Positions 39,199-55,333 of a DNA stretch of 64,000 nucleotides are shown here, one piece after another. Under the pieces are notes generated by a model. The model was not told the DNA's origin. It did not search any database and saw nothing but the letters and a program-made list of their open reading frames with translations. Position numbers and translations under genes: made by a program. The DNA lies in assembly GCA_965221165.1 (NCBI GenBank), contig CBDCRP010000003.1:1536064-1600063 (forward strand). The letters run 5' to 3'. The stretch's first letter is position 1. Every line of letters begins with the position of its first letter. Origin of the DNA: a bacterium. Its GTDB lineage: Bacteria > UBA8248.

Positions 39199-39200
39199 TT

Positions 39201-40568
39201 TTATCCTCGCGCCCATTGTTTTACAAAAGAATTAGGGCCAAGTGAGTCCAGGTAGTGTTGCCATTCATCCGCATGTTTTAGGAGGAGTGTTCTCAGGTAC
39301 TTAAAAATTTCTTCGCATGAATGGTCAAGCGCAGGCTCAAGAAGCATGGCGTGTCTCTCGACCAACAGCCTCATATTTTCTTTCTCCATAGTGGCCAGAT
39401 GCTCCATGTGCAGGACGCCTGCAATCGCGTAATTACGGTAGGCGCTATTTAACTTCGTGAAATCCGGATCGACGGCATCATCTAAGGTTGTCGCTGACAT
39501 GTTAATGCAGATGTAGGCATCGGGACGCTCTCTCAGGCCGGCGGCATGCACGGCGACTCGTCTCAACATGCAAGCAGCGCAGACTCCGCAGTGACGCCAT
39601 TTTCGATTTACGGAACTCCATTGGTTACTACGCCAGCAGGACCTCGTAGATTGCCAGTCGTTTTTTCCGGAAAGAGAACTGAACTTTTTAAGTGTCTCAC
39701 CTTTGGTGTTCCATATTCGCGGAAAAATGTAGCGAACTTGCTTACCTAGGAGCGCCTCAGTGAAACGCTGCATTCGCATCGTAAAAAGAGGATGATTCCG
39801 GTAATCCTTATAGGTGTGTCCTGAGTCTACCAACACTGGTCCGAACACGCCCTGTCCACTTTCGGGAACGATAATTTTCTCAGCATCGGTTATATAAGCG
39901 GCGATGGCGCTAATTAAAGTAAACTTGAAACCCCGACTACGAAAACTCGACTCTCTTTTGGGGGTATGACTTGAAACTTTATAGGGCACATTCGTGAAGG
40001 GTTGGAAGCCGTTGTGATGCGATGGTTTGTTACTACTCTTTGCTCCAATCCTTACACGAACGAGTTTTTCGCCGAACATTTCACCGAGGATGCCTGCTAC
40101 AGCAAACGAATCCATACCGTCACTAAATGCAATGATGGCTTCCGTTGGCACCTTCAAATTGAGATAATCCTGCGGTGGAGATGGTGCTTCACTCGAACGT
40201 CCAATGAAGTCTATTGACCAATAGTCTCCCGTTAGAAATCCAACCGCATCATGAAGTGCAGCGGATGTGTCCGGCGCATTCCACCGTGTAGGATCGTGTA
40301 CGGGTATTTTGAGTGATATTCGGCGCGCCCACTCTTGAGTCGGACGTTTGACGGTTCTATCGCCAAATTCGATGGCGGCAGCAACAACCATTGCATCATA
40401 AAGCACCGTTTCCCATCGGGCGAATGAATAGGTCCGTAGTGCTGCGGTCGAGAATCTTATGTCGCGCTCAAGTTCCAATGGAATGTAATCATTTCCGGGG
40501 TGCTGGCTCGGTTCTATCACATCAATTTTTTTCTCTGACATCCTTCCGAAAAAAGATTTGGTATTCAA
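39201..40568 (-). CDS. QueC-like PP-loop ATPase with an extra ~140-aa N-terminal domain (gene 2)
   Basis: AIIAFSDGMDSFAVAG is a variant SGGxDS PP-loop. It also has ESSFRSRGFKFTL, IVPESGQG, WNTKGETL and a C-terminal Cys cluster SCW...HCGVCAACMLRR, as in QueC CxxC..C. The TTG start overlaps the upstream TGA. Confidence 0.65.
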   Translation of the reverse strand: MNTKSFFGRMSEKKIDVIEPSQHPGNDYIPLELERDIRFSTAALRTYSFARWETVLYDAMVVAAAIEFGDRTVKRPTQEWARRISLKIPVHDPTRWNAPDTSAALHDAVGFLTGDYWSIDFIGRSSEAPSPPQDYLNLKVPTEAIIAFSDGMDSFAVAGILGEMFGEKLVRVRIGAKSSNKPSHHNGFQPFTNVPYKVSSHTPKRESSFRSRGFKFTLISAIAAYITDAEKIIVPESGQGVFGPVLVDSGHTYKDYRNHPLFTMRMQRFTEALLGKQVRYIFPRIWNTKGETLKKFSSLSGKNDWQSTRSCWRSNQWSSVNRKWRHCGVCAACMLRRVAVHAAGLRERPDAYICINMSATTLDDAVDPDFTKLNSAYRNYAIAGVLHMEHLATMEKENMRLLVERHAMLLEPALDHSCEEIFKYLRTLLLKHADEWQHYLDSLGPNSFVKQWARG

Positions 40569-41122
40569 AGCAACGGCCCCTCATCAAGACCAGTGCGTTT
40601 AGTTAAACGGAAATCGGTGTTTGAGAGGCTGCTAGACGTCAATTCCGATACAAGAGTTTCATATCCACATTGGGAGCGAGCAATACTTAAGCGGCTGCGT
40701 ATATATGACACACTGCCCGGTTTTTTTCTGAGATGATGCTCTTCGATTTGACGGCAAACGTCCAGTGCATAAGTTTCAAGAGCATTTTTAAATGCGTGCC
40801 TGAAAGCGGTATCACCGGTCATCCCGTTTTTGTTAACTTCAATTGCACAATCAAGGAGAATATTTCCCTCTGCAGAGCCTCGGCAAATCTGGCGGGCATC
40901 GTTAAGTTGTAAAGAGATTTCTTCCCTACACTGTGAAGCCTTTATTCCATTAACGAATATGTCACAAATTTCAGATAGTGGGACTTTTGAATAATCTTTC
41001 CTAAGGCCGAAAGAGAATGCTTCGTCCAACTCTACATGTGAAAATGCGGGACTTTGAGCTCTCTCTGCGAATTTTTTCCAGTGTCGCCTCATCGGCAAAC
41101 TTTTATGTGGCCCATCACTCAT
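40565..41122 (-). CDS. Hypothetical 185-aa protein (gene 1 of the islet operon)
   Basis: The ATG at 41122 has GGAGG 7 nt upstream. The product is MSDGPHKSLPMRRHWKKFAERAQ... and looks mostly helical. I recognise no family. Confidence 0.6.
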   Translation of the reverse strand: MSDGPHKSLPMRRHWKKFAERAQSPAFSHVELDEAFSFGLRKDYSKVPLSEICDIFVNGIKASQCREEISLQLNDARQICRGSAEGNILLDCAIEVNKNGMTGDTAFRHAFKNALETYALDVCRQIEEHHLRKKPGSVSYIRSRLSIARSQCGYETLVSELTSSSLSNTDFRLTKRTGLDEGPLL

Positions 41123-41142
41123 AAAGCACCTCCTATGTCATA

Positions 41143-41172
41143 ATTATATTTTAATATACCTGACATTGTCAA
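41143..41172 (-). promoter_or_regulatory. Near-consensus sigma70 promoter for the four-gene islet operon
   Basis: The minus strand reads TTGACA (41172-41167), an 18-nt spacer, then TATAAT (41148-41143). It sits ~20 nt upstream of the gene-1 ATG. Confidence 0.65.
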
Positions 41173-41278
41173 TAACAAAGGTGCTAAACTTCACCTTTCT
41201 TAAAAATCCAGCAACTGTCGGGGACAATGAAACAAATCGAGGTGATATTGCAGGCCACAGAAAGAAACACCCCCCCAC

Positions 41279-41440
41279 CCGCATTTCCCCGCATTTGCGC
41301 CTGGGCGCAAGTCTGAGCGGGGCATATCGCTTGAAAGTCCAGGCCTCATTCCGCTCCCCGGAACAAGTGAAAAAATGCTGAAAAATGGTGAAAAATAGGC
41401 GAAATTAAGTGAAAATATCTGAAAATTTATAATGTTGTTA
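41279..41440 (+). repeat. Inverted-repeat arm A: CCGCATTTCCCCGCATTT box plus a phased TGAAAA array
   Basis: ccgcatttccccgcattt at 41279-41296. gTGAAAAaatgcTGAAAAatggTGAAAAataggcGAAATtaagTGAAAAtatcTGAAAAtttataatgttgttatt at 41367-41440, with a period of about 10-11 bp. Confidence 0.75.
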
Positions 41441-41457
41441 TTATTAGGGTTACGCGG

Positions 41458-42624
41458 TTAAACGACCTTATCCGCGCGCATTCGGAAAATCTCCTCCTCA
41501 CCATAGCCGAGCTCGGCGAGAATGGCTTCGGTGTGCTCGCCCGCCCCCGGCGCAGGACGTGAGAAATCGGGCGTCTCGCCGCTGAACGCAAGCGGCGACC
41601 CAGGCAGCAAGCCCGGCCCGGCTACCGGGTGGTCGACCTGGACGAAGGCATCCGGGAAGCGTTCCTTCACCCGGGCGACGTCGTTGATGGCGCTCACCGT
41701 AACGCCTTTGGGGATAAGGGCCTCCTCCCACTCGGCGGTCGTCTTCTCGGTCAAGACGCTCTCCAGAATCCCGCGCAGGGCGGCATCGTTCGCCACGCGG
41801 TCTTTGTTCTCGGCGAAGCGCGGATCGTCGGCGAGCGCCGGCCGGCCTAGGGCCTCGACGAAGACGCGGTAGCGGTTCGTGTTCGAGATCGCCACGAAAA
41901 TGAGGCCGTCTTTCGTCTTATAGCCCGAAAAAGGAGAGACCACCGGATGGGAAAGCCCCTCGGGCCGAGGCACTTGGCCTGTGAACGTGTGGCGCGCCAC
42001 CGGGTTTTCCATGATGTTCACCGTCGCGCCCATCATCGAGGCGTCTACGCGCATGCCCTCTCCGGTGCGCTCCCTGCGGAACAGGGCGGTGAGAACGCCC
42101 GAGAGGAGATAGAGGCCGCTCGCCACGTCCACAATCGAGACGCCCACGCGCACGGGTTCTCCGTCCACAGGCCCCGTCACGCTGATGAGGCCGCCCGCGG
42201 CTTGCAAAAGGCTGTCGAAAGCGGGGCGCCCGGCGTTCTTCCCGGTCTGGCCGAAGCCTGAGACCGCTGCGTATATGAGCCCGGGGTTTTCTTTTTTAAG
42301 GACATCCCAGCCCACGCCCAGGCGATCCATGACGCCGGGGAGGAGGTTTTCCACCAGAACGTCCGCCCCGCGGCAGAGTTTCCTGAATACCTCCACGCCT
42401 TCCGGGTTTTTGAGATCAAGCGTGATGGAGCGCTTGCCGCGATTCAAGCTCATGAAGTAGCTGCTCTCGCCATTCCGGAAAGGACCGATGGCGCGGCTGT
42501 CCTCACCGCCGGGGCGCTCCACCTTCACGACTTCCGCGCCATAGCCCGCCAGATAGAGCGATACGATGGGGCCGGCATTAAACTGGCTGGCGTCAATGAC
42601 CTTCAAACCCTGGAGGAGTGACAT
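41458..42624 (-). CDS. Family III CoA-transferase (CaiB/BaiF)
   Basis: LQGLKVIDASQFNAGPIVSLYLAGYGAEVVKVERPGGEDSR. 388 aa. Confidence 0.85.
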   Translation of the reverse strand: MSLLQGLKVIDASQFNAGPIVSLYLAGYGAEVVKVERPGGEDSRAIGPFRNGESSYFMSLNRGKRSITLDLKNPEGVEVFRKLCRGADVLVENLLPGVMDRLGVGWDVLKKENPGLIYAAVSGFGQTGKNAGRPAFDSLLQAAGGLISVTGPVDGEPVRVGVSIVDVASGLYLLSGVLTALFRRERTGEGMRVDASMMGATVNIMENPVARHTFTGQVPRPEGLSHPVVSPFSGYKTKDGLIFVAISNTNRYRVFVEALGRPALADDPRFAENKDRVANDAALRGILESVLTEKTTAEWEEALIPKGVTVSAINDVARVKERFPDAFVQVDHPVAGPGLLPGSPLAFSGETPDFSRPAPGAGEHTEAILAELGYGEEEIFRMRADKVV

Positions 42625-42642
42625 CGGATGCGTGGGTGCTTT

Positions 42643-43590
42643 CTAGCGGCGTTTCCTGGCGCTTTTGGGGGCCGTTTTCTTCGCAGCAGTCTTTTTCGCG
42701 GGTTTTTTCGTCGTTTGGGCGGGTTTTTTCGCCACTTGTCGCTTGGCCGCCTTCTTCGCGGCGACTTTTGGGGCGGGGGCTTTCTTCGTTGCAGCTTTCG
42801 CGGCTTTGGGGGCGACCGTCTTCTTTTTGACCGCCGTTTTCCTCGTAGCCGCCGCTTTTTTCTGGGCGGTAGCCGTATTCGTCTTGGAGAGGGTCGTTTT
42901 TCTCTTCACCGTAGTGGTCTTCTTGGAAGCAGCGGCCGCTTTCTTTTTCAAAACGGAGGCTTTTTTCCTGGCCGCTGTTCGTTTTTTCTGCACTGCGGCT
43001 TTTCTAGAGGCTTCTTTCTTTTTTTGCGCCTGTTGTTTTTTCCTTTGCTTTTGTTCTTTGATACGCACTGCCTCAGCAGCCCGTATTTCTTCTTCCGTAG
43101 GCGGAAAAACAGGTTTCCTCCGACCCGTAATCAAGCGAAAGGCATACCCCACTTGGGTTTCGCGCCATTCATTCTCCCCGAGATCCTGCAACACAAGTTC
43201 GACCGGAGAGCCCGGAACAAGCATGTCCCGATAACCTTCCCAATCGATTAAATGGGAATTTATCTTTATGCCCTCATCGAGGAGTATTACCGCAGAAACG
43301 CGCTCTTCGTTCCCTTCCACAGATGAACGGGTAACCGTGGCCGAAAGAAGTTTACCCTTCCCGCTGAGAAGCACTTCACTCGTGCTACGCGGACAAACCG
43401 GGTTATCACAAGTGGTTTTCGAGCCGGTCTTCGGGAAAAAATACTCTTCGCATTCCTTACAAACAGACCCAATGAGTTTGGGCTTATGACGAGAATTCCT
43501 GGGAATCGTAAAAACATCGCGCATAAACGGAACAACAACTTTATTTTTCTCAGGTACGAAAATCGAAGGCTGATTCTGGGGGGAGTTCAT
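42643..43590 (-). CDS. Zn-ribbon/OB-fold (DUF35-like) protein fused to a ~140-aa lysine/alanine-rich histone-H1-like tail
   Basis: GSVCKECEEYFFP...CDNPVCP is the zinc ribbon. LLSGKGKLLSATV...AVILLDEGIKI...PVELVL is the OB fold. The tail follows: KKQQAQKKKEASRKAAVQKKRTAARKKASVLKKKAAAASKK...KKPAKKTAAKKTAPKSARKRR. Confidence 0.65.
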   Translation of the reverse strand: MNSPQNQPSIFVPEKNKVVVPFMRDVFTIPRNSRHKPKLIGSVCKECEEYFFPKTGSKTTCDNPVCPRSTSEVLLSGKGKLLSATVTRSSVEGNEERVSAVILLDEGIKINSHLIDWEGYRDMLVPGSPVELVLQDLGENEWRETQVGYAFRLITGRRKPVFPPTEEEIRAAEAVRIKEQKQRKKQQAQKKKEASRKAAVQKKRTAARKKASVLKKKAAAASKKTTTVKRKTTLSKTNTATAQKKAAATRKTAVKKKTVAPKAAKAATKKAPAPKVAAKKAAKRQVAKKPAQTTKKPAKKTAAKKTAPKSARKRR

Positions 43591-43897
43591 GTACTACCCT
43601 GCTTTTGAAGTTCCGATAAACCAAATCTAAGTAAACGAAATGTAAACAGCTAGTTAAAACTCATAGGCATGCATGGATTAGTGCGCGAACACTATCAAGG
43701 GGTTTCGCGAGTGTCAAGATGAGTTCAGACTGGGCAAATCCCTGCATACCAAATTTTTCGAATTCCCAGTCCGCTATTTGAAAATTACCTCCATTTATAG
43801 CCACGATAAGACTCAAGCCAACCTTGATTTTCGCGACTTGACCATCTAAAACCTGCAATCTTATAGTCATCAATCGTATTGATATAAAGGACGCGGT

Positions 43898-45340
43898 ATG
43901 ACTGACCCACACAATCCGAATAGCGAATCCACACTACTACGACTACTACCTTCCGTGGACGAAATTGTTACTCGCCTAAAAAATGAAGGCGTCAATGGTT
44001 CGTCGGATGCTGCATTGTCCGATGCGGCAAGAAAAGCAATCGGAGTGAAAAGACAGCTTCTGCTTGAACAAATGAACAAAAACTTCCCGAAAGCTACAGA
44101 AAACCCACCAATATCCGAACAAACCCTTCAAGATATTGTTGTAAATGACGCAAAGCGGATTCTCTCTTCGAATAAACTGCTTGGATTAAAAAAAGTCATC
44201 AACGCAACAGGAATCGTGCTACACACAAATCTGGGTCGAGCCCCATTAAGTGACGCCGCAAGGTCGGCATTAAATGATGTAGCGCAAGGATATTCAAATT
44301 TAGAATTCGACCTGAATCTCGGGCTGCGAGGAAAAAGAGGGGCCGATGTGGAATCTCTTCTTTGTCAGCTAACAGGAGCGGAAGCAGCATTGGTCGTCAA
44401 CAATAACGCCGCGGCCGTGATGTTCGCGATTCATACGATGGCCGATTCTGCTGAAGTGATCGTTTCACGAGGAGAGTTGGTTGAAATCGGCGGTTCCTTT
44501 CGAATTCCGGATATTATGCTCCAAAGTGGCGCTAAATTAGTAGAAGTAGGGACAACGAACAAAACGAGAATATCCGACTACCAGAACGCCATTACCCAAG
44601 ATACGACTTTGCTGCTGAAGGCGCATACAAGCAATTACAGGATTGTCGGCTTTACGGAAGAAGTATCCCGTGATGAACTCTCAGAGCTTGGGAGAGAAAA
44701 AAATATACCCACGCTAGAGGACCTTGGGAGCGGTTCACTTCTTCATATTGATGGTCTCCCGCATGAACCTACTGTGATGGGATCGATACGAGCGGGAATC
44801 GACGTCATTACATTTTCTGGAGACAAGCTACTGGGTGGCCCACAGGCTGGTATCGTTGTCGGCAAGACGATATGGATAGAGAGAATGAAAAAACATCCAC
44901 TCATGCGCGTTCTCAGGCTGGACAAACTCACCCTCGCCGCTTTGGAGGCGACACTCAGGGGATATCTTGATCCTGATGCCGCCCACACCCAGATCCCGAT
45001 TCTTCAAATGTTGTCCACCAACCGGGAAAAACTGAAAAAACAGGCGGAATCTTTGATGAATCTGATGGGGGAACATACTTGTTCCGTGCTCGGCGCCAAG
45101 GTGGAAGAAACTTCGGGGATGGTAGGCGGCGGGGCCATGCCCCTGGCGAAACTCGATAGTTTCGCAGTGACATTATTTCCCAACAATTTTTCCGCCAAAT
45201 CGTTGGAAACCAAGCTGCGCAATGCTACTCCACCTGTTGTGGCACGCATTCATGAGGATAAAGTAATACTTGACCTGCGATGCATTAGAGTAGGGGAAAT
45301 AAATCAACTTGGCGTGATTCTCAACGAATTCGCAAAGTAA
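43898..45340 (+). CDS. selA: L-seryl-tRNA(Sec) selenium transferase
   Basis: INATGIVLHTNLGRAPL, GGSFRIPDIM and FSGDKLLGGPQAGIVVGK (PLP lysine). Confidence 0.9.
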   Translation: MTDPHNPNSESTLLRLLPSVDEIVTRLKNEGVNGSSDAALSDAARKAIGVKRQLLLEQMNKNFPKATENPPISEQTLQDIVVNDAKRILSSNKLLGLKKVINATGIVLHTNLGRAPLSDAARSALNDVAQGYSNLEFDLNLGLRGKRGADVESLLCQLTGAEAALVVNNNAAAVMFAIHTMADSAEVIVSRGELVEIGGSFRIPDIMLQSGAKLVEVGTTNKTRISDYQNAITQDTTLLLKAHTSNYRIVGFTEEVSRDELSELGREKNIPTLEDLGSGSLLHIDGLPHEPTVMGSIRAGIDVITFSGDKLLGGPQAGIVVGKTIWIERMKKHPLMRVLRLDKLTLAALEATLRGYLDPDAAHTQIPILQMLSTNREKLKKQAESLMNLMGEHTCSVLGAKVEETSGMVGGGAMPLAKLDSFAVTLFPNNFSAKSLETKLRNATPPVVARIHEDKVILDLRCIRVGEINQLGVILNEFAK

Positions 45341-45400
45341 TCTTCAATCTTCTGCGCATATAATTTTCTCGTCATCACGAAAACAGGGGACAATATTCCG

Positions 45401-46204
45401 ATGCCAACCGTTAATTCCGAAGGTGTTGCAATAGATTATGAAGTCATCAATTCCCAGAATACCAATACGCCTGTATTCCTGATTAGCGGGTTGGGAGGCA
45501 TTCGCGCATCATGGACGAAGCAAATCGACGCTTTTTCTGCGACCAGGCCACTCATCCTTCATGACCATAGGGGAACAGGAAATAGCGCAAAACCGAGCGG
45601 GGTATATAGCGTTCCCAACATGGCGAAAGATATCACCGCTATCATGGATGACCTGGGAATAGAAAAAGCGCATCTCGTCGGCAGTTCAACCGGCGGAGCC
45701 ATCATCCAAGTAATGTGCATTGACTATCCCGGCCGTGTCAAAAGCGGCTCCATAGTAAGTTCCTGGCCCAAGAGCGACGCATATTTCATCCGTCAGTTTA
45801 GCGTGCGCAAAAAAGTTTTACTCGGGATGGGATGGGAAACTTACACGAGATTTTCCACATTCACCTTGCATAGCCCAAAGTTTTTCACCGACAACTTTGA
45901 GGAAATTCAAATGCAAGAAAACCAATCGATAGCCAACGCGCCTCCGGCTGAGATTATGGCCGAGAGAATCGAGTGCATTATTGCGCATGATCAGTTGGAC
46001 CGCTTGGGTCAAATCACAAGTCCGGTGCTAGTGGCCGTTGCAAGGGACGATGTCGTCACTCCCCTCTACTATTCTTATCAATTGAGCGATGCCATCCCTG
46101 GAGCTGAATTGAAAATTTTTGATGAAGGCGGCCATTTCGTATATCTTGAAAAACCGGTTGAATTCAATGAATCGATCCTTGAATTCATCCATCGCCATGA
46201 CTAA
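45401..46204 (+). CDS. Alpha/beta-fold hydrolase
   Basis: PVFLISGLGG, nucleophile elbow LVGSSTGGAI and C-terminal GGHFVYLEKP. Confidence 0.75.
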   Translation: MPTVNSEGVAIDYEVINSQNTNTPVFLISGLGGIRASWTKQIDAFSATRPLILHDHRGTGNSAKPSGVYSVPNMAKDITAIMDDLGIEKAHLVGSSTGGAIIQVMCIDYPGRVKSGSIVSSWPKSDAYFIRQFSVRKKVLLGMGWETYTRFSTFTLHSPKFFTDNFEEIQMQENQSIANAPPAEIMAERIECIIAHDQLDRLGQITSPVLVAVARDDVVTPLYYSYQLSDAIPGAELKIFDEGGHFVYLEKPVEFNESILEFIHRHD

Positions 46205-46252
46205 TCGATATTTTTATATCTCGCCTATCAACCACGAAGGCGAAACCACCTT

Positions 46253-48163
46253 ATGAAACATGTCGTCATTGGAACCGCTGGCCACATCGATCATGGCAAA
46301 ACCTTTCTCGTCAAAGCGTTAACCGGCACAGACACTGATCGCCTAAAAGAAGAAAAAGAACGCGGCATCACCATCGAACTCGGGTTTGCGGAGTTGATTC
46401 TCGGTCACATCCACGCAGGTATCGTGGATGTTCCGGGACATGAACGATTCGTAAAAAACATGTTGGCAGGAGTCGGAGGGATCGATTTGGTGATACTGAT
46501 CATCGCTGCCGATGAAGGCGTCATGCCGCAAACGAGGGAGCATTTGTCGATTTGCCGACTTCTCGGGGTAAAAACCGGCCTCATCGTGCTCACCAAAACA
46601 GATCTGGTCGAACCAGAATGGGTTGAACTTGTGACGGACGATATACAAGACTTCGTCAAAGATACCTTTTTGGAAGAAAAACCCATCGTGCCGGTTTCGG
46701 CTCACACTGGAGATGGTCTGGAAAATCTCAAAAAAGCTTTGGTCGAAATCGCAAATCAGACGCCTGCAAAAAGCGAAACGGGTATCTTTCGAATACCGAT
46801 TGACCGTGTATTCACGATGCGGGGCTTCGGTGTCGTGATAACGGGAACCTTGTTCAGTGGAAGTGTGGCTGTAGGTGAACAAATTGAAGTTTACCCTAAG
46901 ACTCTTCAGGCGCGCGTTCGTGGCTTACAAGTACATGGGAAGTCCGTGGAAAAATCGACTGCCGGCCTCAGAACCGCCGTGAATCTTCAGGGCCTCGAGC
47001 GAGCGGAGGTGTTCAGGGGAGATATCATCGGTCATAGTGGTGAACTGAAAACAACGTATATGCTCGACGTTTATCTTGAGCATCTAGGCGATGCGCCTCG
47101 TCCTTTGAAAACCCGGAATCGTATTCGCTTCCATGCAGGCACCGCTGAAATCATGGGCAGGATATCTCTCATCGGACGAGATGTGCTCGAACCGGGAGAT
47201 AATTTATTTGCCCAAATACGGCTGGAGGAACCTATCGTCGTACTGCCCAGAGATCGATTTGTCATCAGAAGTTATTCGCCAATCATCACGATAGGTGGCG
47301 GGGAAATCTTAGATATTATGCCTCGCAAGCATAGACGATTGCGGAGTTCGTCTATAGATCACTTGAAATCACTTTATCAAGGTGATGAGACGGAAAGATT
47401 GCTCATATTACTCCAGGACTCACGGTTGAATGGGGTTGAGCTCACTGACCTCACAGGCCGTCTCACACTAAAGCCAAGTGACATCGAAAAAACCATTCAA
47501 GAATTAGCTGCTCAAGGAGAAGTGGAAATTATCGACCAAGTCAATTTTTTCTCGATGACTACAGCGCACTTCAACACAGCCCAAAAAAATATTCTCACTT
47601 TTTTGAAGAAATATCATACTGAGAACCCTCTTCGCACAGGAGCACCTAAGGAAGAAGTTCGCGGTAAGGCAGGCGACATCAATGAAAAAATCTTTACCGC
47701 CGCACTTAAACACTTAAGCGAATCAAACGAAATTGTTGAAAATGGGGCCATCCTAAGGCTCGCTTCCCATTCAGTAGAAATTGATGAAACACTCGGAGAA
47801 GTGAAAACAAAACTAGAGAAGATTTTCGAGATTGCCCACTTTCAACCGCCATCCGTCGAAGACGCATTCTCACACAGCGGCGGCAAAGACAACTCAAATC
47901 GAAATGCCTTGCAAATCCTCATCGACGAAGGCGCCTTACTGCGACTGAAAGATAACATTATCTATCATAAAAATGCTTTAAACGAAGCAGAAAACCTCCT
48001 TAAAGAGCATCTATCATTCAACAACGAAATTTCGGCGGCGGAATTTCGGGACCTGTTGGGCATCACAAGAAAACACGCCATACCTTTGCTTGAATATTTC
48101 GATACCGCACGCGTTACGCTACGGGTGGGAGACAAAAGAGTGCTTCGGCCAGACGCGAGATAA
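46253..48163 (+). CDS. selB: Selenocysteine-specific translation elongation factor
   Basis: [50 protein letters not shown] and LTKTD. The long winged-helix C-terminus ends ...[23 protein letters not shown]. Confidence 0.9.
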
Positions 48164-48190
48164 AATCCCTGTATGTATAAGGAATAAAAA

Positions 48191-49378
48191 ATGCCTCTCG
48201 ACAATAATAAAATCCAACGGCTGCGTTCAGATGTCCCGGCACTGGCAAATCAGATTTATGTAAATTGGGGGGGAGGGGGACCATCCTCAAAATCGATTCT
48301 TCGTGAAATGGATAAGTTCACAAAACGTGATTTAGAACTCGGCTCATTCCACCCAAAAATCAGGAATGAAACCACCGCAGCTCAGAAACGGACTAGAGAG
48401 AGCTGCGCAAAACTCATCGGCGTAGAAACTTCAGAAATCGCCCTAACGAATAATACAACGGTCGGGATCAACATTGCGGCGGCCGGATTGGCATGGAATG
48501 CAGGAGATGAAGTGCTCGTCTCGGATTTGGAACATCCAAGCGGCTACCTGCCCTGGTTGGTATGGCGCAAGAGAAATTCCATCAAGGTGAAACTATTCAA
48601 AACCGGTAAAAATGATCAGGAACTTCTCCGAAATTTAGAAAACGCCATCACCCTGAAAACAAAAGTGGTTTGTGTGAGCCACATCTCATGGCTAAATGGC
48701 AGGAGACTCCCTTTGGAGGCAATCGGTCGCATCTGCGTCTCAGCAGGCGCGCTTCTCATCGTAGACGGCGCCCAATCCGTCGGGCATATACCAGTCAAAG
48801 TCAAAGACACCGGCGTAGACGTCTACACCATATCAGGCCAAAAGTGGCTGATGGGTCCGGATGGTACGGGGGCCGTATATATAAGGCATGAAGCAGGCAG
48901 AAAGATTCATCTTTCATCTGCAAGTTTTCGGACAGCTCAAAAAAAGAGATTAAAAACCCTGTCTTTTACGCCGGAGCCGAGCGCCATGCGCCACGAAGTC
49001 GGCACTCTCAATACACCCGGTTTCTTGGGATTCCGTGCTGCGGTTGAGCATTTCAGAAGAACAGGGCCCATATCCATCGAAAAAAGGATTCTGGCGCTGG
49101 CGAATCGCCTGCTGTCCCAAATACGTGCAATCAAGAATGTTGATGTCATTACACCCGAAGGAGAGGCTCAGTCTGGTCTGATTTCTTTTCGAATTGAGAA
49201 CGTGGAATCTCAAAATGTGGTAGACAGGCTCTACAAGAGACACCTAATCATCCTTAGGGCAGTGGTAACAGAGCCTCCCGCCGTGAGAGTTTCCATTCAT
49301 TATTTGAACACGGAAGAAGAAATGGACTCGATTGCAAATGCGATAGCCACTATAGCGGCCGGCAGAAGAAAACGATAA
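48191..49378 (+). CDS. Class V aminotransferase (cysteine desulfurase / selenocysteine-lyase-like)
   Basis: IVDGAQSVGHIPV and ISGQKWLMGPDGTGAVYIR (PLP Lys region). Confidence 0.75.
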   Translation: MPLDNNKIQRLRSDVPALANQIYVNWGGGGPSSKSILREMDKFTKRDLELGSFHPKIRNETTAAQKRTRESCAKLIGVETSEIALTNNTTVGINIAAAGLAWNAGDEVLVSDLEHPSGYLPWLVWRKRNSIKVKLFKTGKNDQELLRNLENAITLKTKVVCVSHISWLNGRRLPLEAIGRICVSAGALLIVDGAQSVGHIPVKVKDTGVDVYTISGQKWLMGPDGTGAVYIRHEAGRKIHLSSASFRTAQKKRLKTLSFTPEPSAMRHEVGTLNTPGFLGFRAAVEHFRRTGPISIEKRILALANRLLSQIRAIKNVDVITPEGEAQSGLISFRIENVESQNVVDRLYKRHLIILRAVVTEPPAVRVSIHYLNTEEEMDSIANAIATIAAGRRKR

Positions 49379-49400
49379 AAGAAAAACCCAAAACCACACA

Positions 49401-49437
49401 AAAAAAGGCGACGGTTATTTCACCACCGCCTTTTTTT
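49401..49437. terminator. Candidate bidirectional intrinsic terminator between convergent genes
   Basis: aaaaaaaGGCGACGGTtatttcACCACCGCCttttttt: an A-run, an imperfect stem and a T-run. Confidence 0.55.
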
Positions 49438-49453
49438 GTTGTTTGGCTCAGGG

Positions 49454-50194
49454 TTATTTTTTCAGCGTTTCGTTCACCGCCGTAGCAGCGCCACCCTTCA
49501 CCGACACCTTCATGGATTTCTTACCCAAAACCTCATGCCAAATTTCGAGGGTATAGGAGCCTGCAGGAACATCTTTTATCTCGAATTTGCCCCCGGCACC
49601 CGTGACGCCGACATAGGGATTATCCGCCACAACGATATACCCTCTCATCCAGTCATGTACGTCACACTTCACTGCAATAATACCGGGCTTCTTGAAATAG
49701 CGGGTCGACATTCTCAGTTTTTTCTTGAACTTCGGCTGCGCGATATTGGCTATCGAGTTCCCGGTTTTACCAGGGTAGGTGTGGACATTGTGGAGGATTT
49801 TGTCACTGTTTTTCATCAACATTTTCGTCTTTTGCTTCATCACGGCGACTCGAGGCAGGTACACACATCCTTTTTGGTCAACGACCGCTTTTTTCTGGCT
49901 CTTCGACCACTTCTTGCCGGATTTCACGCCTTTCAAAGACACGACGGCCCATACCACGCCGCCGTCTTTGACAACCAGACTATCATCGGTAATCGGTTTT
50001 TTTCCGCAAACTTTTTTATCTTTGTTCACTGATAATGTTTTGCGTTTTGGGGCGGCGCCTTCGAACTTGATTGCTCCGCTAATCGATCCCCCACCGCTTA
50101 CTTTTCCTTCCTTATAAGCATACGCGGAGCCGGCAAAGGCGACACTCAGGCACATCGCAAACATCAAGCACAATTGAAAGCGTTTGGGAATCAT
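49454..50194 (-). CDS. Exported cupredoxin-like (type-1 Cu) protein with a C-terminal carboxypeptidase-regulatory-like beta domain
   Basis: The signal peptide is MIPKRFQLCLMFAMCLSVAFAGSAYA, from ATG 50194 after GGAG. ILHNVH ... KCDVHDWM gives a His / Cys-x2-His-x2-Met spacing as in amicyanin. GKFEIKDVPAGSYTLEIWHEVLG follows. Confidence 0.5.
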   Translation of the reverse strand: MIPKRFQLCLMFAMCLSVAFAGSAYAYKEGKVSGGGSISGAIKFEGAAPKRKTLSVNKDKKVCGKKPITDDSLVVKDGGVVWAVVSLKGVKSGKKWSKSQKKAVVDQKGCVYLPRVAVMKQKTKMLMKNSDKILHNVHTYPGKTGNSIANIAQPKFKKKLRMSTRYFKKPGIIAVKCDVHDWMRGYIVVADNPYVGVTGAGGKFEIKDVPAGSYTLEIWHEVLGKKSMKVSVKGGAATAVNETLKK

Positions 50195-50526
50195 ACCTAC
50201 TCCTCTCAAAGAATTTTTCAGATTGGCAGCTACTGTTTTCAAAAATGTGCAACGCAGTCATTCGCACACGAAATATCGGTGATTTCAGGCACAGGACCTA
50301 TAAAATTAACTTCTAATCAAATCGGAATCGCCAGGAACTCACACCTTCTCCATTCAAGTAATGCACCTTTCACTTTAAGTCAACCCTCTTCGTAGTTGGC
50401 CTTGAAATTCACCTTGATTCATTGCCTCATTGGGCCGAATGCTGTTATGAAAGAGCGCATGAATTCCGCCGCGAAAATAGGCCGATCAGTGCAGATTTCA
50501 AGAATATTTTCAGTGAGATAAGGGCT

Positions 50527-51408
50527 ATGAGAAATTTCCACTACTTGGCAATCAGTCTCTTCCTCTTGTTTTTATTCTGCATGGCTTTCTTCCCTCGTAA
50601 CAGCCCTGCGCACCACACCAGTTCCATAGCCTATGTCCTTCAAGAAGTCGGCAAGAAGAAAATAGGAAATATCGAGATAGAGCTGAACGCCATGCCTCCG
50701 AGGTTGATAAAACACAGAAACGCTCCCAAATCTCTTGAACACACACACAAGCTTTTATCTCGATTCACACATCGTTTTGAAATGAGAATTCTCAATGATA
50801 AAAGTGGTGGTTCCACATCGAAAAAACTGGATCTGAAACTGAAATTCGCCCAAAACGAATGGGAAAAGACCTTCACGCTCAAAAGATTCCAGAAAGGCAA
50901 ACAAATAATTTATGGCGCAAACGTCAAGCTAGGCGAAAAAGGTCCATATGCCGTCACGGCTGTCATATTCGGTCTGGCGCCTCATCCCATACGAGCGCAA
51001 TTTTCTTTCGATTTCGACCCCGAATCGGTCAAGGACGTGATGAAAGACCTGGAAAAAACCATGGCGAATCTGGGTCGTGAAACGCTCACCCTGGGGCTGG
51101 ACGGCGAGTTCGTCCCAAGGGAAAAAGAGCGCCACATCCAGCGATTGGCCGAAAAATTCAGATATTTCGTTCCCTGGATATCGAATCTCAGGGAGGGAGA
51201 AGCGCAAGAGTTATATGATGACCTGACCCGGAAACTACTCGACCTTGCCGAAATAATGACGAAAAACGCCCAAAAACCGGACTTCGACCGACTCGCCGAG
51301 AACCTCGCCGCCGCAAGAGCGCTTTGCTCAAAATGCCACCAAATCTTCCAGGAAGCGGACTCCACCGGTAAACCCATCCAGTTGCCCACCTCATCATCTA
51401 CCCGGTAG
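50527..51408 (+). CDS. Exported protein with one C-terminal CXXCH heme-c motif (class II cytochrome-c-like helical C-domain)
   Basis: The start is at MRNFHYLAISLFLLFLFCMAFF (signal/anchor). ...AARALCSKCHQIFQ lies near the C-terminus. Confidence 0.5.
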   Translation: MRNFHYLAISLFLLFLFCMAFFPRNSPAHHTSSIAYVLQEVGKKKIGNIEIELNAMPPRLIKHRNAPKSLEHTHKLLSRFTHRFEMRILNDKSGGSTSKKLDLKLKFAQNEWEKTFTLKRFQKGKQIIYGANVKLGEKGPYAVTAVIFGLAPHPIRAQFSFDFDPESVKDVMKDLEKTMANLGRETLTLGLDGEFVPREKERHIQRLAEKFRYFVPWISNLREGEAQELYDDLTRKLLDLAEIMTKNAQKPDFDRLAENLAAARALCSKCHQIFQEADSTGKPIQLPTSSSTR

Positions 51409-51513
51409 CCGGAAGGGCTCTAAAGCCGTGATGTTTGCAACATGACGGACTCTGGGGTATCTCTTTTCAAAGGCGGCTAATCGCCGTTACGCTCGATTTT
51501 CCGGGAGTAGAAA

Positions 51514-52362
51514 GTGAATCCGAGTCTCAAAGACGCGAAAATGCCCGAAACGCTCGATGGATGGGCGATTCTGCACCACATATTCAAGGTGAATTGGCCC
51601 ACCTGGAACCACTTGGAGAGCGCTCGGAAACACAGCATCCTGGATGAAGCGACTGAATACTTCGCATCCATCGCCCGGCCCGAATCAGGAGAAAGCGCCC
51701 TTTTCAGCCTATTGGGCCACAAAGGAGATTTACTGTTTCTTCATTTCAGACCCACGCTCGATGCGCTCAATGAAGTCGAACTCGGTCTACGGCGGCTGGC
51801 GCTGGCCGAATATATGGATGAAACGACATCCTACCTCTCGTTCCTGGAACTCGGCCTCTACGAAATGACCGTGAAACTCCACGCCCAGTTCGTGGATGAG
51901 GGTCATGAGCCGGGAAGCGAGGACTGGAAGTCGAAGTGGTCCGAAGAAATGGACAACCAGCGCGAGCGTATGAAAGAGCGCCTCTACATGGATATCCCCA
52001 AAACGAGATATTTGTGTTTTTACCCGATGAACAAGCGCAGGGGCGAGGAGAAGAACTGGTACGGCCTGCCCATAGAAGAGCGCCAGCAAATGATGCGCGA
52101 ACACGGTTTCGTCGGCAGGCGATACGCCGGCCGTGTGCAGCAAATCATCACGGGCAGCATCGGCTTCGACGACTGGGAGTGGGGAGTATATCTGTTCTCG
52201 CAAGACCCGCTCGTCTTCAAGCGCCTCGTATATGAAATGCGCTTCGATGAGACCAGCGTCTGGTATGGGGAGTTCGGGCCCTTCTACGCCGGTTTGCGCG
52301 TCATGCCGCACCATCTAAAAAACATATTTCACGGCAAAGTCCCCCCACTCGAAGCGCCGTAG
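51514..52362 (+). CDS. Chlorite-dismutase-family protein (HemQ/coproheme-decarboxylase-like)
   Basis: GWAILHHIFKVNW and YLCFYPMNKRRGEEKNWYGLPIEERQQMMREHGFVGRRYAGRVQQIITGSIGFDDWEWGV. The GTG start follows GGGAG. Confidence 0.75.
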   Translation: MNPSLKDAKMPETLDGWAILHHIFKVNWPTWNHLESARKHSILDEATEYFASIARPESGESALFSLLGHKGDLLFLHFRPTLDALNEVELGLRRLALAEYMDETTSYLSFLELGLYEMTVKLHAQFVDEGHEPGSEDWKSKWSEEMDNQRERMKERLYMDIPKTRYLCFYPMNKRRGEEKNWYGLPIEERQQMMREHGFVGRRYAGRVQQIITGSIGFDDWEWGVYLFSQDPLVFKRLVYEMRFDETSVWYGEFGPFYAGLRVMPHHLKNIFHGKVPPLEAP

Positions 52363-52380
52363 AACAGCAATCGACCTCTC

Positions 52381-53241
52381 ATGGCGAACATTCTCATCCT
52401 GGGATGCGGTTATGTCGGCGTGGCGCTCGGCGCAGCGCTCGGCGAGGATGGACATCTCGTCTGGGGCATGCGCAGAAATCCGGAAAATCTGCCCGAAGCT
52501 ATCAAACCGCTCGCAGCCGACGTCCACGATAAAGACCTGAGCGATTTCCTCCCTGAGGGGCTCGATTTCATCTTCTACACCCTCTCCTCGGGCGGCGGTG
52601 GCGAGGCCGGCTACCAGGCGGCATACGCGGATGGCCCCCAAAACCTCATCAAAGCGCTCGATATGAAAGGAGAAAAGCCTAAACGAATTTTCTTCACTTC
52701 GAGCACGGCCGTCTACCCGCAAACCGACGGCGGCTGGGTGGACGAGGAATCGCCCACACAACCCACATATTACTCGGGCCGCATTCTGCTGGAGGGTGAA
52801 CGTGCCTTCTTGAGCAGCGACCATCCTGCCACTATCCTGCGGCTTGCCGGTATTTACGGCCCGAATCGCACGCGCTTGATAGACTCCGTCCGGGCGGGCC
52901 GGGCCGAGCACCACACAGGCCCCCCGCGCTTCACGAACCGAATCCACCGGGATGACTGCGCGGGAACCCTCATCCATCTCATGAAGATGGCCACACCGGA
53001 TGAGATATACATCGGCGTCGATGATGAGCCTGCGGACCGCCGTGCCGTGCTGAATTGGCTGGCGGAGCAGCTAGGCGTTCCGCATCCTCGTGAGACCAAA
53101 ACCTCTGAAGCCGAGTCCGCGCGCGCAATGACAAACAAGAGATGCTCGAACGCCAGACTCAAAGCAACCGGATATCGGTTTGTCTACCCATCGTATCGAG
53201 AGGGCTACGCCGAAATGATTGCAGACGGAAAAACCGCGTAA
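52381..53241 (+). CDS. NAD(P)-dependent epimerase/dehydratase-type SDR
   Basis: The Rossmann motif is ILILGCGYVGVALG. There is also LRLAGIYGP. Confidence 0.7.
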   Translation: MANILILGCGYVGVALGAALGEDGHLVWGMRRNPENLPEAIKPLAADVHDKDLSDFLPEGLDFIFYTLSSGGGGEAGYQAAYADGPQNLIKALDMKGEKPKRIFFTSSTAVYPQTDGGWVDEESPTQPTYYSGRILLEGERAFLSSDHPATILRLAGIYGPNRTRLIDSVRAGRAEHHTGPPRFTNRIHRDDCAGTLIHLMKMATPDEIYIGVDDEPADRRAVLNWLAEQLGVPHPRETKTSEAESARAMTNKRCSNARLKATGYRFVYPSYREGYAEMIADGKTA

Positions 53242-53253
53242 ATAACCAGAAAA

Positions 53254-53949
53254 TCAACCATCCAGAAGCATCCGCAACTCTTTTCTCAACTTTTTCACGG
53301 AATCGGCGTCGTCGCTGTGGTAATAGCCCCGGATGTTGAAGTTCCTGTCGATGAGCACGAAACGCGAACTATGCGAAATCAGGACTTCCTGCGTGCGCCC
53401 CTCCCCCTGATGTCCAGGATGATGGGCGTGCGCGCCGGGGAGCAGAAACCGAAAAACCCGCTCATAAATGGAACCCACAGGACGCATGGCTTGTTTGGTC
53501 GCATAGCTCAGGCGAAAGCCCTTGAGCGCTAGGTTTTTAATTTCATTCGCCTCGCCTGTGAGGAAAAACCAACGCTCTGTGTCCGCCCCGAATTTGCGCG
53601 CATAGGCCGCCAGGAGGGACGCCTTATCATTCTCGGGGTCCGTGGTGATGGAGAGTTGGCGGAAATCCTCGTGCGCGGAAAACGCCTGCTGAAGCCGCCG
53701 CATCTCGGTCGTCTGGAGGGGGCAGGTATCCTCACACCGCGTGTAGATGAAGTCCGCCACCCAGACTTTCCCGCGCAGGCGCTCTCTCGTGAAGCTGCGG
53801 CCCGATGCATCAACCAATTCAAAATAGGGTAGTTGCGAATAGATGGGCAGGCTTTGAAAAAAATGCCGCTCGACCCAGCGCCAGCCGGGCGCACCGGCCA
53901 GCAAGGCCAGAACGCCCAGGGTTGCCACCAGAATCACGCGCCGCGCCAT
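53254..53949 (-). CDS. SCO1/SenC-family copper chaperone (thioredoxin fold)
   Basis: VADFIYTRCEDTCPL (CxxxCP) and a downstream conserved His in LISHSSRFVLID. The start is set at MARRVILVATLGVLALL (ATG 53949). Confidence 0.8.
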   Translation of the reverse strand: MARRVILVATLGVLALLAGAPGWRWVERHFFQSLPIYSQLPYFELVDASGRSFTRERLRGKVWVADFIYTRCEDTCPLQTTEMRRLQQAFSAHEDFRQLSITTDPENDKASLLAAYARKFGADTERWFFLTGEANEIKNLALKGFRLSYATKQAMRPVGSIYERVFRFLLPGAHAHHPGHQGEGRTQEVLISHSSRFVLIDRNFNIRGYYHSDDADSVKKLRKELRMLLDG

Positions 53950-54180
53950 TCCCTCTTCCTCACGAAAACCAGAGAAATCCAACCGCGCGCATTCTGGCAA
54001 AACACGCGCGCCCATGCAAAGCCCGCCGGGGCGGATTTCCGCCTTTTACACCGCCAAAAGCCTTCATTTATTTTTCGAAAAAAGTCGTGAATTTATCGGA
54101 TTTCATCGCCATCCCCCGCGCCCTGAAACCCCGCATGGGGGGATCGCCTCCAATTCGCCCCGAATCGACATAACACTTTT

Positions 54181-54344
54181 AATATCAACAGGATAAATTT
54201 TCACTTATTTTCAGATATTTTCCCTATTTTTCACCTTATTTCACTTATTTTCAGAAATCCCCGAAGCTCCCGAAAAGCCCGAGCCGCTCCGCCGCCATAC
54301 CCGAATCCCCCGTGCGCGAGAGCGGAAAATGCGGGGAAATGCGG
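54181..54344 (-). repeat. Inverted-repeat arm B (partner of 41279..41440)
   Basis: The reverse complement reads ccgcatttccccgcatttt ... ctgaaaataagtgaaataaggtgaaaaatagggaaaatatctgaaaataagtgaaaatttatcctgttgatatt. Confidence 0.75.
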
Positions 54345-54608
54345 TCGCATTGTCGGTATGAACTTCCCGGCCCGACACAAATACTGAAAATGGTTGCAAG
54401 TCGCAGACAGGCATCGAGCGGTTGTATTACAGAACCATAAAATCGACAGTCCTTTATGCAGGTCGATTCGAGTGGCGGGTCCGCTAAAATCGGAGGCGGA
54501 ATACGGGGTCTCCCGTGCCGGGGATTGCGATTTCCTCTCGATTCACCACACTCAGGGAGCACCCGGCGCGCCGAATCCACGAATCCTCGAAAACCAGGAG
54601 CAGGAACG

Positions 54609-55208
54609 TTGACCAACGCCGATTCGAAAGCGGGGCCGCTCCTTCGCGCCGCCCGCGAAGTTGACCTGCCCGCTATCCGGAAGATATACGCCCACCATTT
54701 GCTGCATGGGCCGGCCTCGTTCGAGGAGATCAAATCCGACTGATGAAGGAGGATTTGCCGACTGATGAAGGAGGGGCTGCAACTGAGGAAGGAGTGATGG
54801 GAGATTCGCCGCCGCTTCCGCGCCGTCAGAGCGAAAGAACTCCCCTATCTCGTGGCGGAGATCGAAGGCGCCGTCCGGGCCTACGCCTATGCGGCGCCCT
54901 ACCACCACCGGCCGGCATACCGCCACGCCGTCGAAAATTCGGTCTACGTCGACCGGAGCGCCGCGCGCCGGGGCCTCGGCGGCGCGCTCCTCGCCTCGCT
55001 AATCGATTCATGCGCCGAAAAGGGCTTGCGCCAGATGGTCGCGGTCATCGGCGACGGCGCGAATGCGGCCTCGATCAAGCTGCACGAGCGCGCCGGATTT
55101 CGATTCGTCGGCGCTCTTGAGTCCATCGGCTTCAAGCACGGCCAGTGGCTCGACTGCGTGATCATGCAGCGCGCCTTGAGCGAGGGCGGCGGTACGCCGC
55201 CTTCCTGA
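54609..55208 (+). pseudogene. Phosphinothricin-acetyltransferase-like GNAT interrupted by three in-frame TGA codons
   Basis: TTG 54609 begins ...LRAAREVDLPAIRKIYAHHLLHGPASFEEIKSD**...*WEIRRRFRAVRAKELPYLVAEIEGAVRAYAYAAPYHHRPAYRHAVENSVYV...AASIKLHERAGFRFVGALESIGFKHGQWLDCVIMQRAL. It is a single frame throughout. The stops are at 54741, 54744 and 54795. Confidence 0.7.
54736..54800 (+). repeat. Tandem ~22-nt repeat (two good units plus one degenerate) inside the PAT-like gene
   Basis: ccgacTGATGAAGGAGGatttg / ccgacTGATGAAGGAGGggctg / caacTGAGGAAGGAGTGATGG. Confidence 0.8.
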
Positions 55209-55333
55209 ATCGCGGGTCGCGGGGCATCAAGCGGCTACGATAAAGCCTGTCTCGCCACGCTGCCATACGGAGTGAAGCCTCTGCGCCTATGAGAGGGGGC
55301 GCTGAGAAAGCCGCCTCTTCATTCACATACGCA

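Follow-up and report, generated by a model that had tools for sequence, protein, structure and literature searches.

The question raised by this locus is what two inverted repeats, arm A and arm B, are doing at the borders of a conserved gene block. They lie in a stretch of 64,000 nt (hereafter the window; positions 1,536,064 to 1,600,063 of contig CBDCRP010000003.1, assembly GCA_965221165.1) and bracket 12.8 kb that runs from a CoA-transferase gene to SCO1. The initial annotation, made from the letters of the window, offered three readings: long terminal inverted repeats (TIRs) of a non-autonomous element, an invertible segment, or two copies of one element end facing each other. Comparison with loci fetched from related genomes, which are designated here by L-numbers, leads us to an answer that we consider probable: the arms are two inverted copies of a modular, multi-copy intergenic repeat of sponge-type Nitrospinota, and they form a recombining pair at the borders of a vertically inherited block. 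The parts of the window on which this answer builds are the following.

41279 to 41452, + strand: arm A, a whole module copy (box, degenerate -10, spacer, array and tail), directed at the 3' end of the CoA-transferase gene
41279 to 41296, + strand: box A, CCGCATTTCCCCGCATTT, with two decamer-phased CCGCATTT repeats
41325 to 41330, + strand: -10-like hexamer of arm A, TATCGC, at +29 after the box; degenerate, with C and not T at position 6
41365 to 41427, + strand: array A, six (T)GAAAA(T) units at 10-11 bp, by periodicity and Tandem Repeats Finder (TRF)
41421 to 41442, + strand: tail A, GAAAATTTATAATGTTGTTATT, common to arm B
41455 to 54043, no strand: conserved 12.6-kb block from the CoA-transferase gene to SCO1 (Pfam; collinear in ten relatives)
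53991 to 54019, - strand: proximal sigma-70-type SCO1 promoter, TTGCAT-17 nt-CAGAAT, predicted by reading the sequence
54056 to 54108, - strand: canonical-array remnant CGATGAAATCCGATAAATTCACGACTTTTTTCGAAAAATAAATG, between arm B and the SCO1 promoter (profile match, E = 7.9e-5)
54171 to 54344, - strand: arm B, a whole module copy, directed at SCO1
54181 to 54202, - strand: tail B, GAAAATTTATCCTGTTGATATT, common to arm A
54197 to 54258, - strand: array B, six (T)GAAAA(T) units at exactly 10 bp (TRF period 10, 5.7 copies)
54294 to 54299, - strand: -10-like hexamer of arm B, TATGGC, at +28 after the box; degenerate, with C and not T at position 6
54327 to 54344, - strand: box B, 100% identical to box A

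Re-reading of the arms bore out most of what had been seen in them, namely their coordinates, the outer box, the diverged GC-rich spacer, the unit array, the common end and the inward direction of both arrays. Arm A (41279-41452, + strand) and arm B (54344-54171, - strand) are an inverted pair of ~170 bp each, and a repeat search finds a 61-nt inverted pair between them with 75% complementarity. Within the window, CCGCATTTCCCCGCATTT with at most two mismatches occurs only in the two arms (chance expectation 0.1 copies), and 0 chance matches are expected for their common tail GAAAATTTATnnTGTTGnTATT, found at 41421-41442 and 54202-54181. The spacer 3' of the box is 68 nt long and GC-rich in both arms, and it is scarcely alignable between them. 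The arrays had been described as five or six TGAAAA(T) units at 9-12 bp; the array itself is confirmed, with the numbers now set at six units per arm and a spacing of 10-11 bp. The GAAA starts of array A lie at 41369, 41380, 41390, 41401, 41411 and 41421 (steps of 11, 10, 11, 10 and 10) and those of array B at 54252, 54242, 54232, 54222, 54212 and 54202, every step being 10. The AA-dinucleotide spectrum of the arrays has its maximum at 10.0 bp, with a power that was equalled in 0 of 2000 shuffles. No target-site duplication is found outside the arms, in agreement with the earlier observation; the flanks CCCCCCAC (41271-41278) and TCGCATTG (54345-54352) differ. The hexamers of both arms are called degenerate because the T at position 6 is replaced by C; that of arm B aligns with TATGAT of relatives. 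A scan for consensus sigma-70 promoters gave none inside the arms, its sole find being the promoter of a neighbouring islet gene described further below, and a sigma-54 promoter or a -35 element within the box was rejected because the spacings, as read from the sequences, are unsuitable.

Both arms belong to a large family. The search for further module copies that had been proposed from the window yielded many of them at unrelated loci in related genomes. The box was scanned for as an exact CCGCATTTCCCCGCATTT match, with one genome per species, and was found in more than 115 stretches of public genomes among the matches listed, mostly metagenome-assembled genomes (MAGs) of Nitrospinota type. 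Related assemblies, at least 16 in number, account for about 70 of the listed stretches, and a single genome has up to 11 of the boxes listed. Some box-bearing assemblies are labelled Nitrospinota (the sponge MAGs COS4_bin_23, RHO1_bin_79, SB0662_bin_51 and CO36386bin_35), and other box-bearing MAGs without a label are 85-95% identical to Nitrospinota-labelled ones. The rest of the listed matches come from other phyla and fall in CCCCGCATTT-type simple repeats or in coding DNA. A module profile built from the TATGAT-type modules of 13 relatives, with the window left out, has only three matches in the 64 kb: arm B (54346-54238, E = 8.6e-14), arm A (41275-41428, E = 2.3e-7) and the remnant at 54108-54056.

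In copies from this lineage, the box has GCNGT after it and then a -10-like hexamer at a fixed distance, with no conserved -35 element between. Such a hexamer was required to agree with TATAAT in at least four of its six positions, among them A at the second and T at the sixth. Of 41 non-redundant copies, 29 have one that starts at +29/+30 after the box, whereas the mean at other offsets is 2.5%. The box therefore lies at about -59 to -42 of a promoter-like unit. Most family copies were collected by exact box match, which makes the box invariant by construction; the hexamer spacing and the downstream sequence were unselected. The hexamer is often followed by an AT-rich array with the consensus GAATTTCCGAAAAATTCGATAAATATCGATAAATTCACGGGGTTTTTCGATAAAT. 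In its canonical form the array consists of direct GA(T/A)AAAT-type units every 10-11 bp, and its core GAATTTCCGAAAAATTCGATAAATATCGATAAATTCACGGGGTTTTTCGATAAATTnCTGAAAAT, located 90-350 nt past the box, is present in 44 copies in the fetched loci and near-invariant at the nucleotide level. The fixed-distance -10 and the near-invariant array core argue for selection on function over recent transposition. At L055 (from 1315) and L086 (from 6320) a collagen-like (GXY repeat) acidic protein starts 54-65 nt past the box, which is too near for the usual box to -10 geometry.

The modules are dispersed as units. Whole modules of ~360 bp, from the box to further boxes, occur within one genome with unrelated flanks; L012 and L026 have nothing in common but a 359-bp module at 87% identity. 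Each of these dispersed copies has orthologues in other genomes. Some copies are palindromic, with box, TATGAT and array followed by an inverted CAGAAT and an inverted box (L092, L071, L097, L110 and L113). Judged by the context of open reading frames (ORFs), the family copies are intergenic, have unrelated flanks and are restricted to the lineage, as is expected of a dispersed intergenic repeat. Roughly one array in two is directed at the 3' end of a convergent gene, as is the left module in all relatives; at several loci the array lies 80-160 nt upstream of a co-oriented gene start. No paper containing the box or the array core was found in the literature searched. We regard the family as undescribed until now and as belonging to a kind of element that is already known, a dispersed intergenic repeat that mediates rearrangement, whose molecular function is putative.

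Whether the block and its arms travel together or stay in place was judged from ten relatives (L092 with L071, L097, L119 and L199-L205), which comprise SelB-anchored loci fetched without box selection and box-selected syntenic loci. The anchors and the variable segments next to the arms are as follows.

36868 to 37242, - strand: arfB-like gene (RF-1 domain), left anchor for scoring orientation
37340 to 41275, no strand: window-specific defence-like islet of 3.9 kb, from arfB to arm A
55217 to 56537, no strand: window-specific insertion in the right flank with a DUF4325/HATPase gene, between segments shared with L204 and absent from L204
56967 to 58589, - strand: SulP/STAS transporter gene, right anchor common to L204

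The block is collinear in 10 of 10 relatives at 80-95% identity, and no empty site without it was found among the genomes compared. In the seven SelB-anchored loci the profile scan places a (-) array on the right in all seven and a (+) array on the left in six; the left array of L199 is only a remnant, read by eye. Reading by eye also gives the inward layout at both ends of L092/L071 and at the left end only of L097 and L205. To the left of the CoA-transferase end, the arfB-like gene is present in the window, in L119 and in L201-L205; it is adjacent in 8 of 11 genomes. On the right, the window and L204 are collinear over an acetyltransferase gene (54615-55216), a small helix-turn-helix (HTH) gene (56538-56941) and SulP (from 56972). 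In these two genomes the block lies between arfB and SulP or variable islets, and the window order of arfB, block and SulP is the majority arrangement. An impression that the block was 'floating', gained from tblastx of the immediate flanks, proved to be mostly noise; L204 and L201-L205 gave conserved outer anchors. The arms have orthologues as well. From 41343 on, each unit of arm A has its orthologue in the left module of L204, with GATAAAT-type units there in place of the TGAAAAT of the window, and the tails of the two (in L204 GAAAATTTATCTTTTTGTTTTT) match as far as the CoA-transferase stop codon. For the head of arm B (GTATGGCGGCGGAGCG...GGGGATTTCTGAAAAT), the orthologue is the right module of L204, which is of TATGGT type. 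With the block collinear throughout and an inward module at each of its ends that could be read, the arms are old residents of these two intergenic sites and not TIRs of a mobile block.

The relatives also show what can happen at such a pair of modules. Between L205 and L199 the block is 95.5% identical and runs forward in both (L205 4402-12824 = L199 5210-13629), and a segment with Fic, arfB, box, leader and array is reversed (L205 1831-4363 = L199 20297-17810). This segment is joined to the CoA-transferase end of the block in L205 and, inverted, to the SCO1 end in L199. These two close relatives thus differ by an inversion of the block whose breakpoints lie in the arrays. A three-way alignment locates the switch points within the last array units, and TCGATAAATAAAYGAACATTTATG (~25 bp) is common to both L199 junctions. 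arfB and Fic provide a double anchor for the inversion from the L205 comparison; no SulP homologue that could serve as a second anchor was identified on the 64,078-bp contig of L199. The idea of an invertible segment thus holds on an evolutionary scale, but neither an invertase gene nor a sign of ongoing switching was found in the window.

Inversion is not the only event located at modules. L092 has its left flank and palindromic element in common with L110 and its element and block in common with L200, and L110 and L200 are two distant loci of one genome; this pattern is best read as an exchange between distant loci. In L199, the left array remnant TTTCGATAAAT is directly adjoined, at ...GTCTTTCGATAAAT, by an element that encodes TrwC and, in tandem, two tyrosine integrases (Arm-DNA-bind_3). 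The same element end meets the same array unit in L090, and a related element interrupts the array of L034. One junction was seen in each of these three loci, at a TTCGATAAAT-type unit, and the opposite junctions were not recovered. The left site carries different module variants among relatives (L205/L199, L119/L202/L203, palindromic and L204/window types), from which it follows that variants were swapped over time, and variable islets adjoin both arms of the window. Taken as breakpoints, the modules appear to be recombination hot spots. The initial annotation had allowed that the module might be a common promoter or UP-element architecture that marks no breakpoint; a promoter-like architecture is indeed common at many unrelated loci, but the repeats do mark breakpoints. 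TrwC-relaxase/tandem-integrase elements lie beside modules in four genomes (L199 1-4929, L090 1-4667, L034 4-1511 and L002 6857-7999). Elsewhere in the window, 22021-25367 is 97.5% identical to L082 4654-8000 of Nitrospinota MAG COS4_bin_23; this MAG differs left of 22021, with a box/array module ~900 bp away instead, which is another local rearrangement.

The arms of the window are not typical members of the family. We interpret them as a derived variant in which CGATAAAT/CACGGGGTTTTTCG units appear to have become TGAAAAT and both -10 hexamers are without T at position 6. In 1.73 Mb of fetched loci, no other array of TGAAAAT type is present. L205 and L199, whose blocks are 91% and 89% identical to that of the window, have canonical arrays or remnants instead, and their homology to the window ends at 41455/41447 and at 54098. 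The array and tail of arm B are similar to the tail at the left site, as seen in arm A and in the left module of L204, and not to the right array of L204, and a canonical remnant persists proximal to SCO1. The simplest reading is that the array and tail likeness of the arms would come from exchange between the two inverted sites, by gene conversion or by a past flip with staggered crossovers. Such an exchange would not be recent, because the arrays are only 75-85% identical. The probable SCO1 start (MARRV) is at 53949, and the CAGAAT promoter and MARR start of SCO1 are also present in L071, L119, L199 and L204.

From these observations we propose the following explanation. The head of the module, with two to three decamer-phased CCGCATTT repeats, would occupy the place of an activator or UP-like site (-59 to -42) and would form, together with the -10 hexamer 29-30 nt away, a promoter-like unit without a -35 element; the box may be bound by some factor or by the alpha subunit of RNA polymerase. 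The GA(T/A)AAAT units of the module tail lie on one helix face and probably provide a cooperative multi-site protein-binding platform of bent DNA. One module would have been present in each bordering intergenic region, with the arrays inward, since before the lineages diverged, and the block would have been inherited vertically and not as cargo of a mobile element. The two modules would recombine because they are inverted repeats of each other: in relatives the block has been flipped by crossover in the last array units, and module variants would be exchanged between the sites. The array units would also serve as insertion points for the integrase-bearing element, and islets are found beside the modules.

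Several points weigh against this explanation. The inversion is documented in relatives and not in the window. The SelB-fetched loci, which were not selected by box, have box variants such as CCGCATTTGCCCGCAGTTGC or a decayed box (left module of L204). The promoter and protein-binding roles are deduced from sequence statistics, and arm A is directed into the 3' end of a convergent gene, so that it is no ordinary gene promoter. A -10 hexamer that keeps both A2 and T6 and stands at a set distance from the box characterizes the family and not the two window arms; with hexamers that lack the critical T and with no canonical core, these arms may be decaying relics rather than functional copies. Finally, conversion between the arms is suggested by a pattern of similarity.

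The element junctions raise the possibility that the inward arrays are att-like (attachment) sites of resident tyrosine integrases, and that the block is site-specifically invertible by an enzyme from the element and not by a RecA-mediated route. The inverted genome, L199, is the very one in which TrwC and two Arm-DNA-bind_3 integrases are joined at TTTCGATAAAT, and the recurrence of the same junction unit in L090 and the interrupted array in L034 point in the same direction. The ~25 bp of TCGATAAATAAAYGAACATTTATG at both L199 junctions are short for homologous recombination, and direct repeats at 10-11 bp resemble the arm-type sites of lambda-type att. With such a short junction and an integrase element at one of the two, a site-specific route therefore keeps some probability, but a small one. 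No tyrosine-integrase homologue was found in the 64-kb window by tblastn (serine invertases were not searched window-wide), and none of the 11 block genes and 9 flanking ORFs scanned against Pfam has a recombinase domain. No empty and occupied versions of a single site were obtained from which a core could be defined, the other end of the element was never seen, and the window arms lack the TTCGATAAAT unit. The modules moreover share hundreds of bp at ~80% identity, which is perhaps enough for homologous exchange. A bolder version is, in our estimation, slightly more doubtful still: the modules would be genome-wide attachment or recombination sites of tandem-integrase conjugative elements, the pair at the block an inversion switch, and the TGAAAAT arms of the window, without TTCGATAAAT, its locked state. 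As unlikely as the att-site reading itself is that the arms are plain regulatory DNA, i.e. promoters with operator arrays for neighbouring genes, and that rearrangements coincide with them only by accident, given that recombination now and then is to be expected of any intergenic repeat. The constant distance from box to -10, the conserved positions among relatives, the arrays 80-160 nt upstream of co-oriented gene starts and the location of arm B and the remnant upstream of SCO1 would all fit, although SCO1 also has its own promoter. Against it stand the arrays that face convergent 3' ends, the left module in every relative included, the dispersal of 360-bp modules with unrelated flanks in one genome, and several independent rearrangement or insertion junctions exactly in modules.

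The remaining explanations fare worse. TIRs of a mobile block and arms owned by the islets are both excluded in our view because the block, the inward modules, the anchors and the L204 orthologues are conserved. The inverted orientation, the identical 18-nt outer box, the subterminal repeats and the differences in the immediate outer flanks between lineages would suit a non-autonomous transposon (composite, or like a miniature inverted-repeat transposable element) that moves the 12.8-kb block. Further out, though, the flanks agree between genomes (arfB left of the block in the window, L119 and L201-L205; SulP right of it in the window and L204) with variable islets between, the divergence of the block tracks that of the relatives, its low-GC part (43-51 kb) does not end at the arms, and there is neither a target-site duplication nor, among the 20 ORFs of block and flanks scanned against Pfam, a transposase, TnsB/MuA-type included. 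We consider the TIR reading, which was among the suggestions of the initial annotation, as largely refuted and hardly credible. Ends of Tn7/Mu-like elements were rejected on the same scan, and the ends begin with CCGC and not with terminal TG/CA. The suggestion that arm A is the end of the defence-like islet, or more generally that each arm is an att-type end of the adjacent islet, with two copies of one island end facing each other, is very improbable. Window-specific islets do lie outside both arms (37340-41275 and 55217-56537), modules elsewhere do receive islets or the integrase element, and TGAAAAT-type arrays are confined to the window as far as the 1.73 Mb of related loci go. However, arm A from 41343 on and the head of arm B are orthologous to modules of L204, which lacks the islets; the right islet is separated from arm B by 270 bp and the acetyltransferase gene shared with L204; no matching att-like direct repeat exists at the far ends of the two islets; and no integrase was found in the window. 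A product encoded by the module, either a small RNA from the box promoter or a small protein with the array as its C-terminus (frame EFPKNSINIDKFTGFFDKFLK), is also very unlikely. Many copies have a ribosome-binding site (RBS) and ATG past the box and read through the array in one same frame, which is stop-free in the consensus. Nevertheless, the variability has no 3-nt periodicity, dN/dS is 0.67 vs 0.73 and 0.83 in the other frames, frameshifting indels are tolerated, and several copies have no start or contain stops. RNAalifold gives -7.9 kcal/mol with one covarying pair, which amounts to no conserved structure; fold z-scores are +2.3 (arm A, worse than shuffles), +0.4, -0.5 and -0.2; and no Rfam match was obtained at gathering or E-value thresholds. 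Since there is no RNA structure and no codon signal and frameshifts are tolerated, we take conservation to act on DNA and not on RNA or protein. Two further candidates were dismissed. Three viral contigs that match the tail pattern do so by chance, being phage DNA of 31-37% GC without box or array, and iterons of a replication origin do not agree with at least 10 copies per genome or with the CoA-transferase gene, SCO1 and islets as neighbours.

Among known systems, our preferred reading of a dispersed, recombining intergenic repeat would be closest in behaviour to repeats such as Correia (NEMIS) of Neisseria and BOX of Streptococcus pneumoniae, and to classical inversions between inverted repeats. 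Correia and BOX are likewise short (~150-400 bp), multi-copy, intergenic and modular; some module copies have inverted terminal boxes around an AT-rich centre as they do (L092, L071, L110 and L113), and promoter-like sequences and rearrangement breakpoints are common to both. The likeness is one of build and behaviour; none is expected in sequence. In contrast to those repeats, no target-site duplication and no polymorphism of filled and empty sites was seen here, module copies are at orthologous positions in genomes 10-20% apart, and the -10 is at a fixed distance and the array core near-invariant. Inversions between rrn operons or copies of insertion sequences (IS) also produce both orientations in close relatives with switch points inside the repeats, but the repeats here are only ~170-330 bp long and ~75-80% identical, the junction is ~25 bp, and an integrase element is present at one junction. 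Activator-dependent sigma-70 promoters (PhoB/OmpR-type boxes) and UP elements share decamer-phased direct repeats fixed from the -10 and the lack of a conserved -35. The distance of 29-30 nt from the end of the box to the -10 is greater than in a pho box, and unlike A/T-rich UP elements the box is GC-rich with two ATTT patches; its promoter role and cognate factor are putative. Lambda-type att arm sites and iterons have four to six AT-rich direct repeats with helical spacing, and an element with Arm-DNA-bind integrases is joined to a unit here, but the modules are present many times in a genome, adjoin neither a rep nor an int gene in the window, have a promoter-like head and show no core-type inverted repeat that could be identified. 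Of the hallmarks of Hin/Gin-type or shufflon segments, both orientations are found (L205/L199), but a dedicated recombinase is not among the block genes and flanking ORFs scanned. As to short inverted crossover sites (20-35 bp) with a dyad-symmetric core, the L199 junctions have the ~25 bp of TCGATAAATAAAYGAACATTTATG in common, in which no dyad core was defined, and the window arms lack this unit.

To our knowledge, no cis-elements have been described before in these uncultured sponge symbionts. A box with a -10 at a fixed distance, in many copies per genome, offers a handle on promoter architecture and on a putative DNA-binding factor. The modules are where these genomes break, as seen in the block inversion in near-identical strains, the exchange between distant loci, the integrase junction and the defence islets, which helps to account for the mosaic synteny seen in the MAGs. 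In practice they call for caution in binning and assembly, since modules may be points of false joins or breaks in contigs. Two conspicuous inverted repeats can turn out to be of an old regulatory type that relatives share, and the segment they bound can nonetheless be truly invertible.

The enclosed block encodes for a CoA-transferase, an OB-fold protein, SelA (43898-45340), a hydrolase, SelB (46253-48163; both assigned by Pfam) and a class-V aminotransferase, followed by a beta-sandwich protein, an unknown gene, a HemQ-like protein, an epimerase and SCO1. The 'Sec machinery' reported earlier is thus present as the selenocysteine genes SelA and SelB and not as the Sec translocon. An exact-protein look-up with the CoA-transferase and SelB of the window gave no identical record for either. 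The block had also been described as compositionally mixed and in large part AT-richer than the backbone; this holds for 43-51 kb, where GC is 44-49% vs 60-65% in the backbone, but the edges of the low-GC stretch do not match the arms. The low-GC SelA-SelB region with its neighbours (43000-51400) is kept in all relatives, which suggests an old horizontal acquisition before the lineages split. The OB-fold (ChsH2_C-like) protein (42643-43590, - strand) has a long Lys/Ala-rich tail like histone H1, and the strand opposite its gene carries long spurious ORFs. An ORF of 328 amino acids (50422-51408), which has no match in Pfam or PADLOC, is present in the window, L199 and L201 and absent from L071, L119, L200 and L202-L204.

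The islet left of arm A, with genes from 37422 to 41122, encodes for a PIN-like protein (PDC-S70), an RmrA-like protein with HTH and M78 peptidase, a QatC-like PP-loop protein and an unknown protein of 185 amino acids. A perfect TTGACA-18-TATAAT promoter of an islet gene lies at 41172-41143 (- strand), and the islet is absent between arfB and the module in L119 and L201-L205. A second arfB-like (RF-1 domain) copy at 21443-21912 (- strand) bounds ~15 kb together with the copy at 36868 (- strand), and L119 has a comparable full-plus-partial arfB pair around a small AAA-ATPase islet; arfB itself may be an island insertion site. On the right side, the DUF4325/HATPase gene (55334-56401, - strand) has upstream of it an AT-rich region with repeated TTTTACAACTTTTTT motifs (56364-56498). 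At the start of the acetyltransferase-like ORF, 54736-54795 contains three tandem 17-nt units CCGACTGATGAAGGAGG, each with an RBS-like AGGAGG. The window contains a different short dispersed repeat at 18104-18307, which also occurs in L012, L103, L119 and L201. Lastly, an Rfam match to the cspA thermoregulator (85.6 bits) was obtained at L100 2486-2844 and is unconnected with modules.

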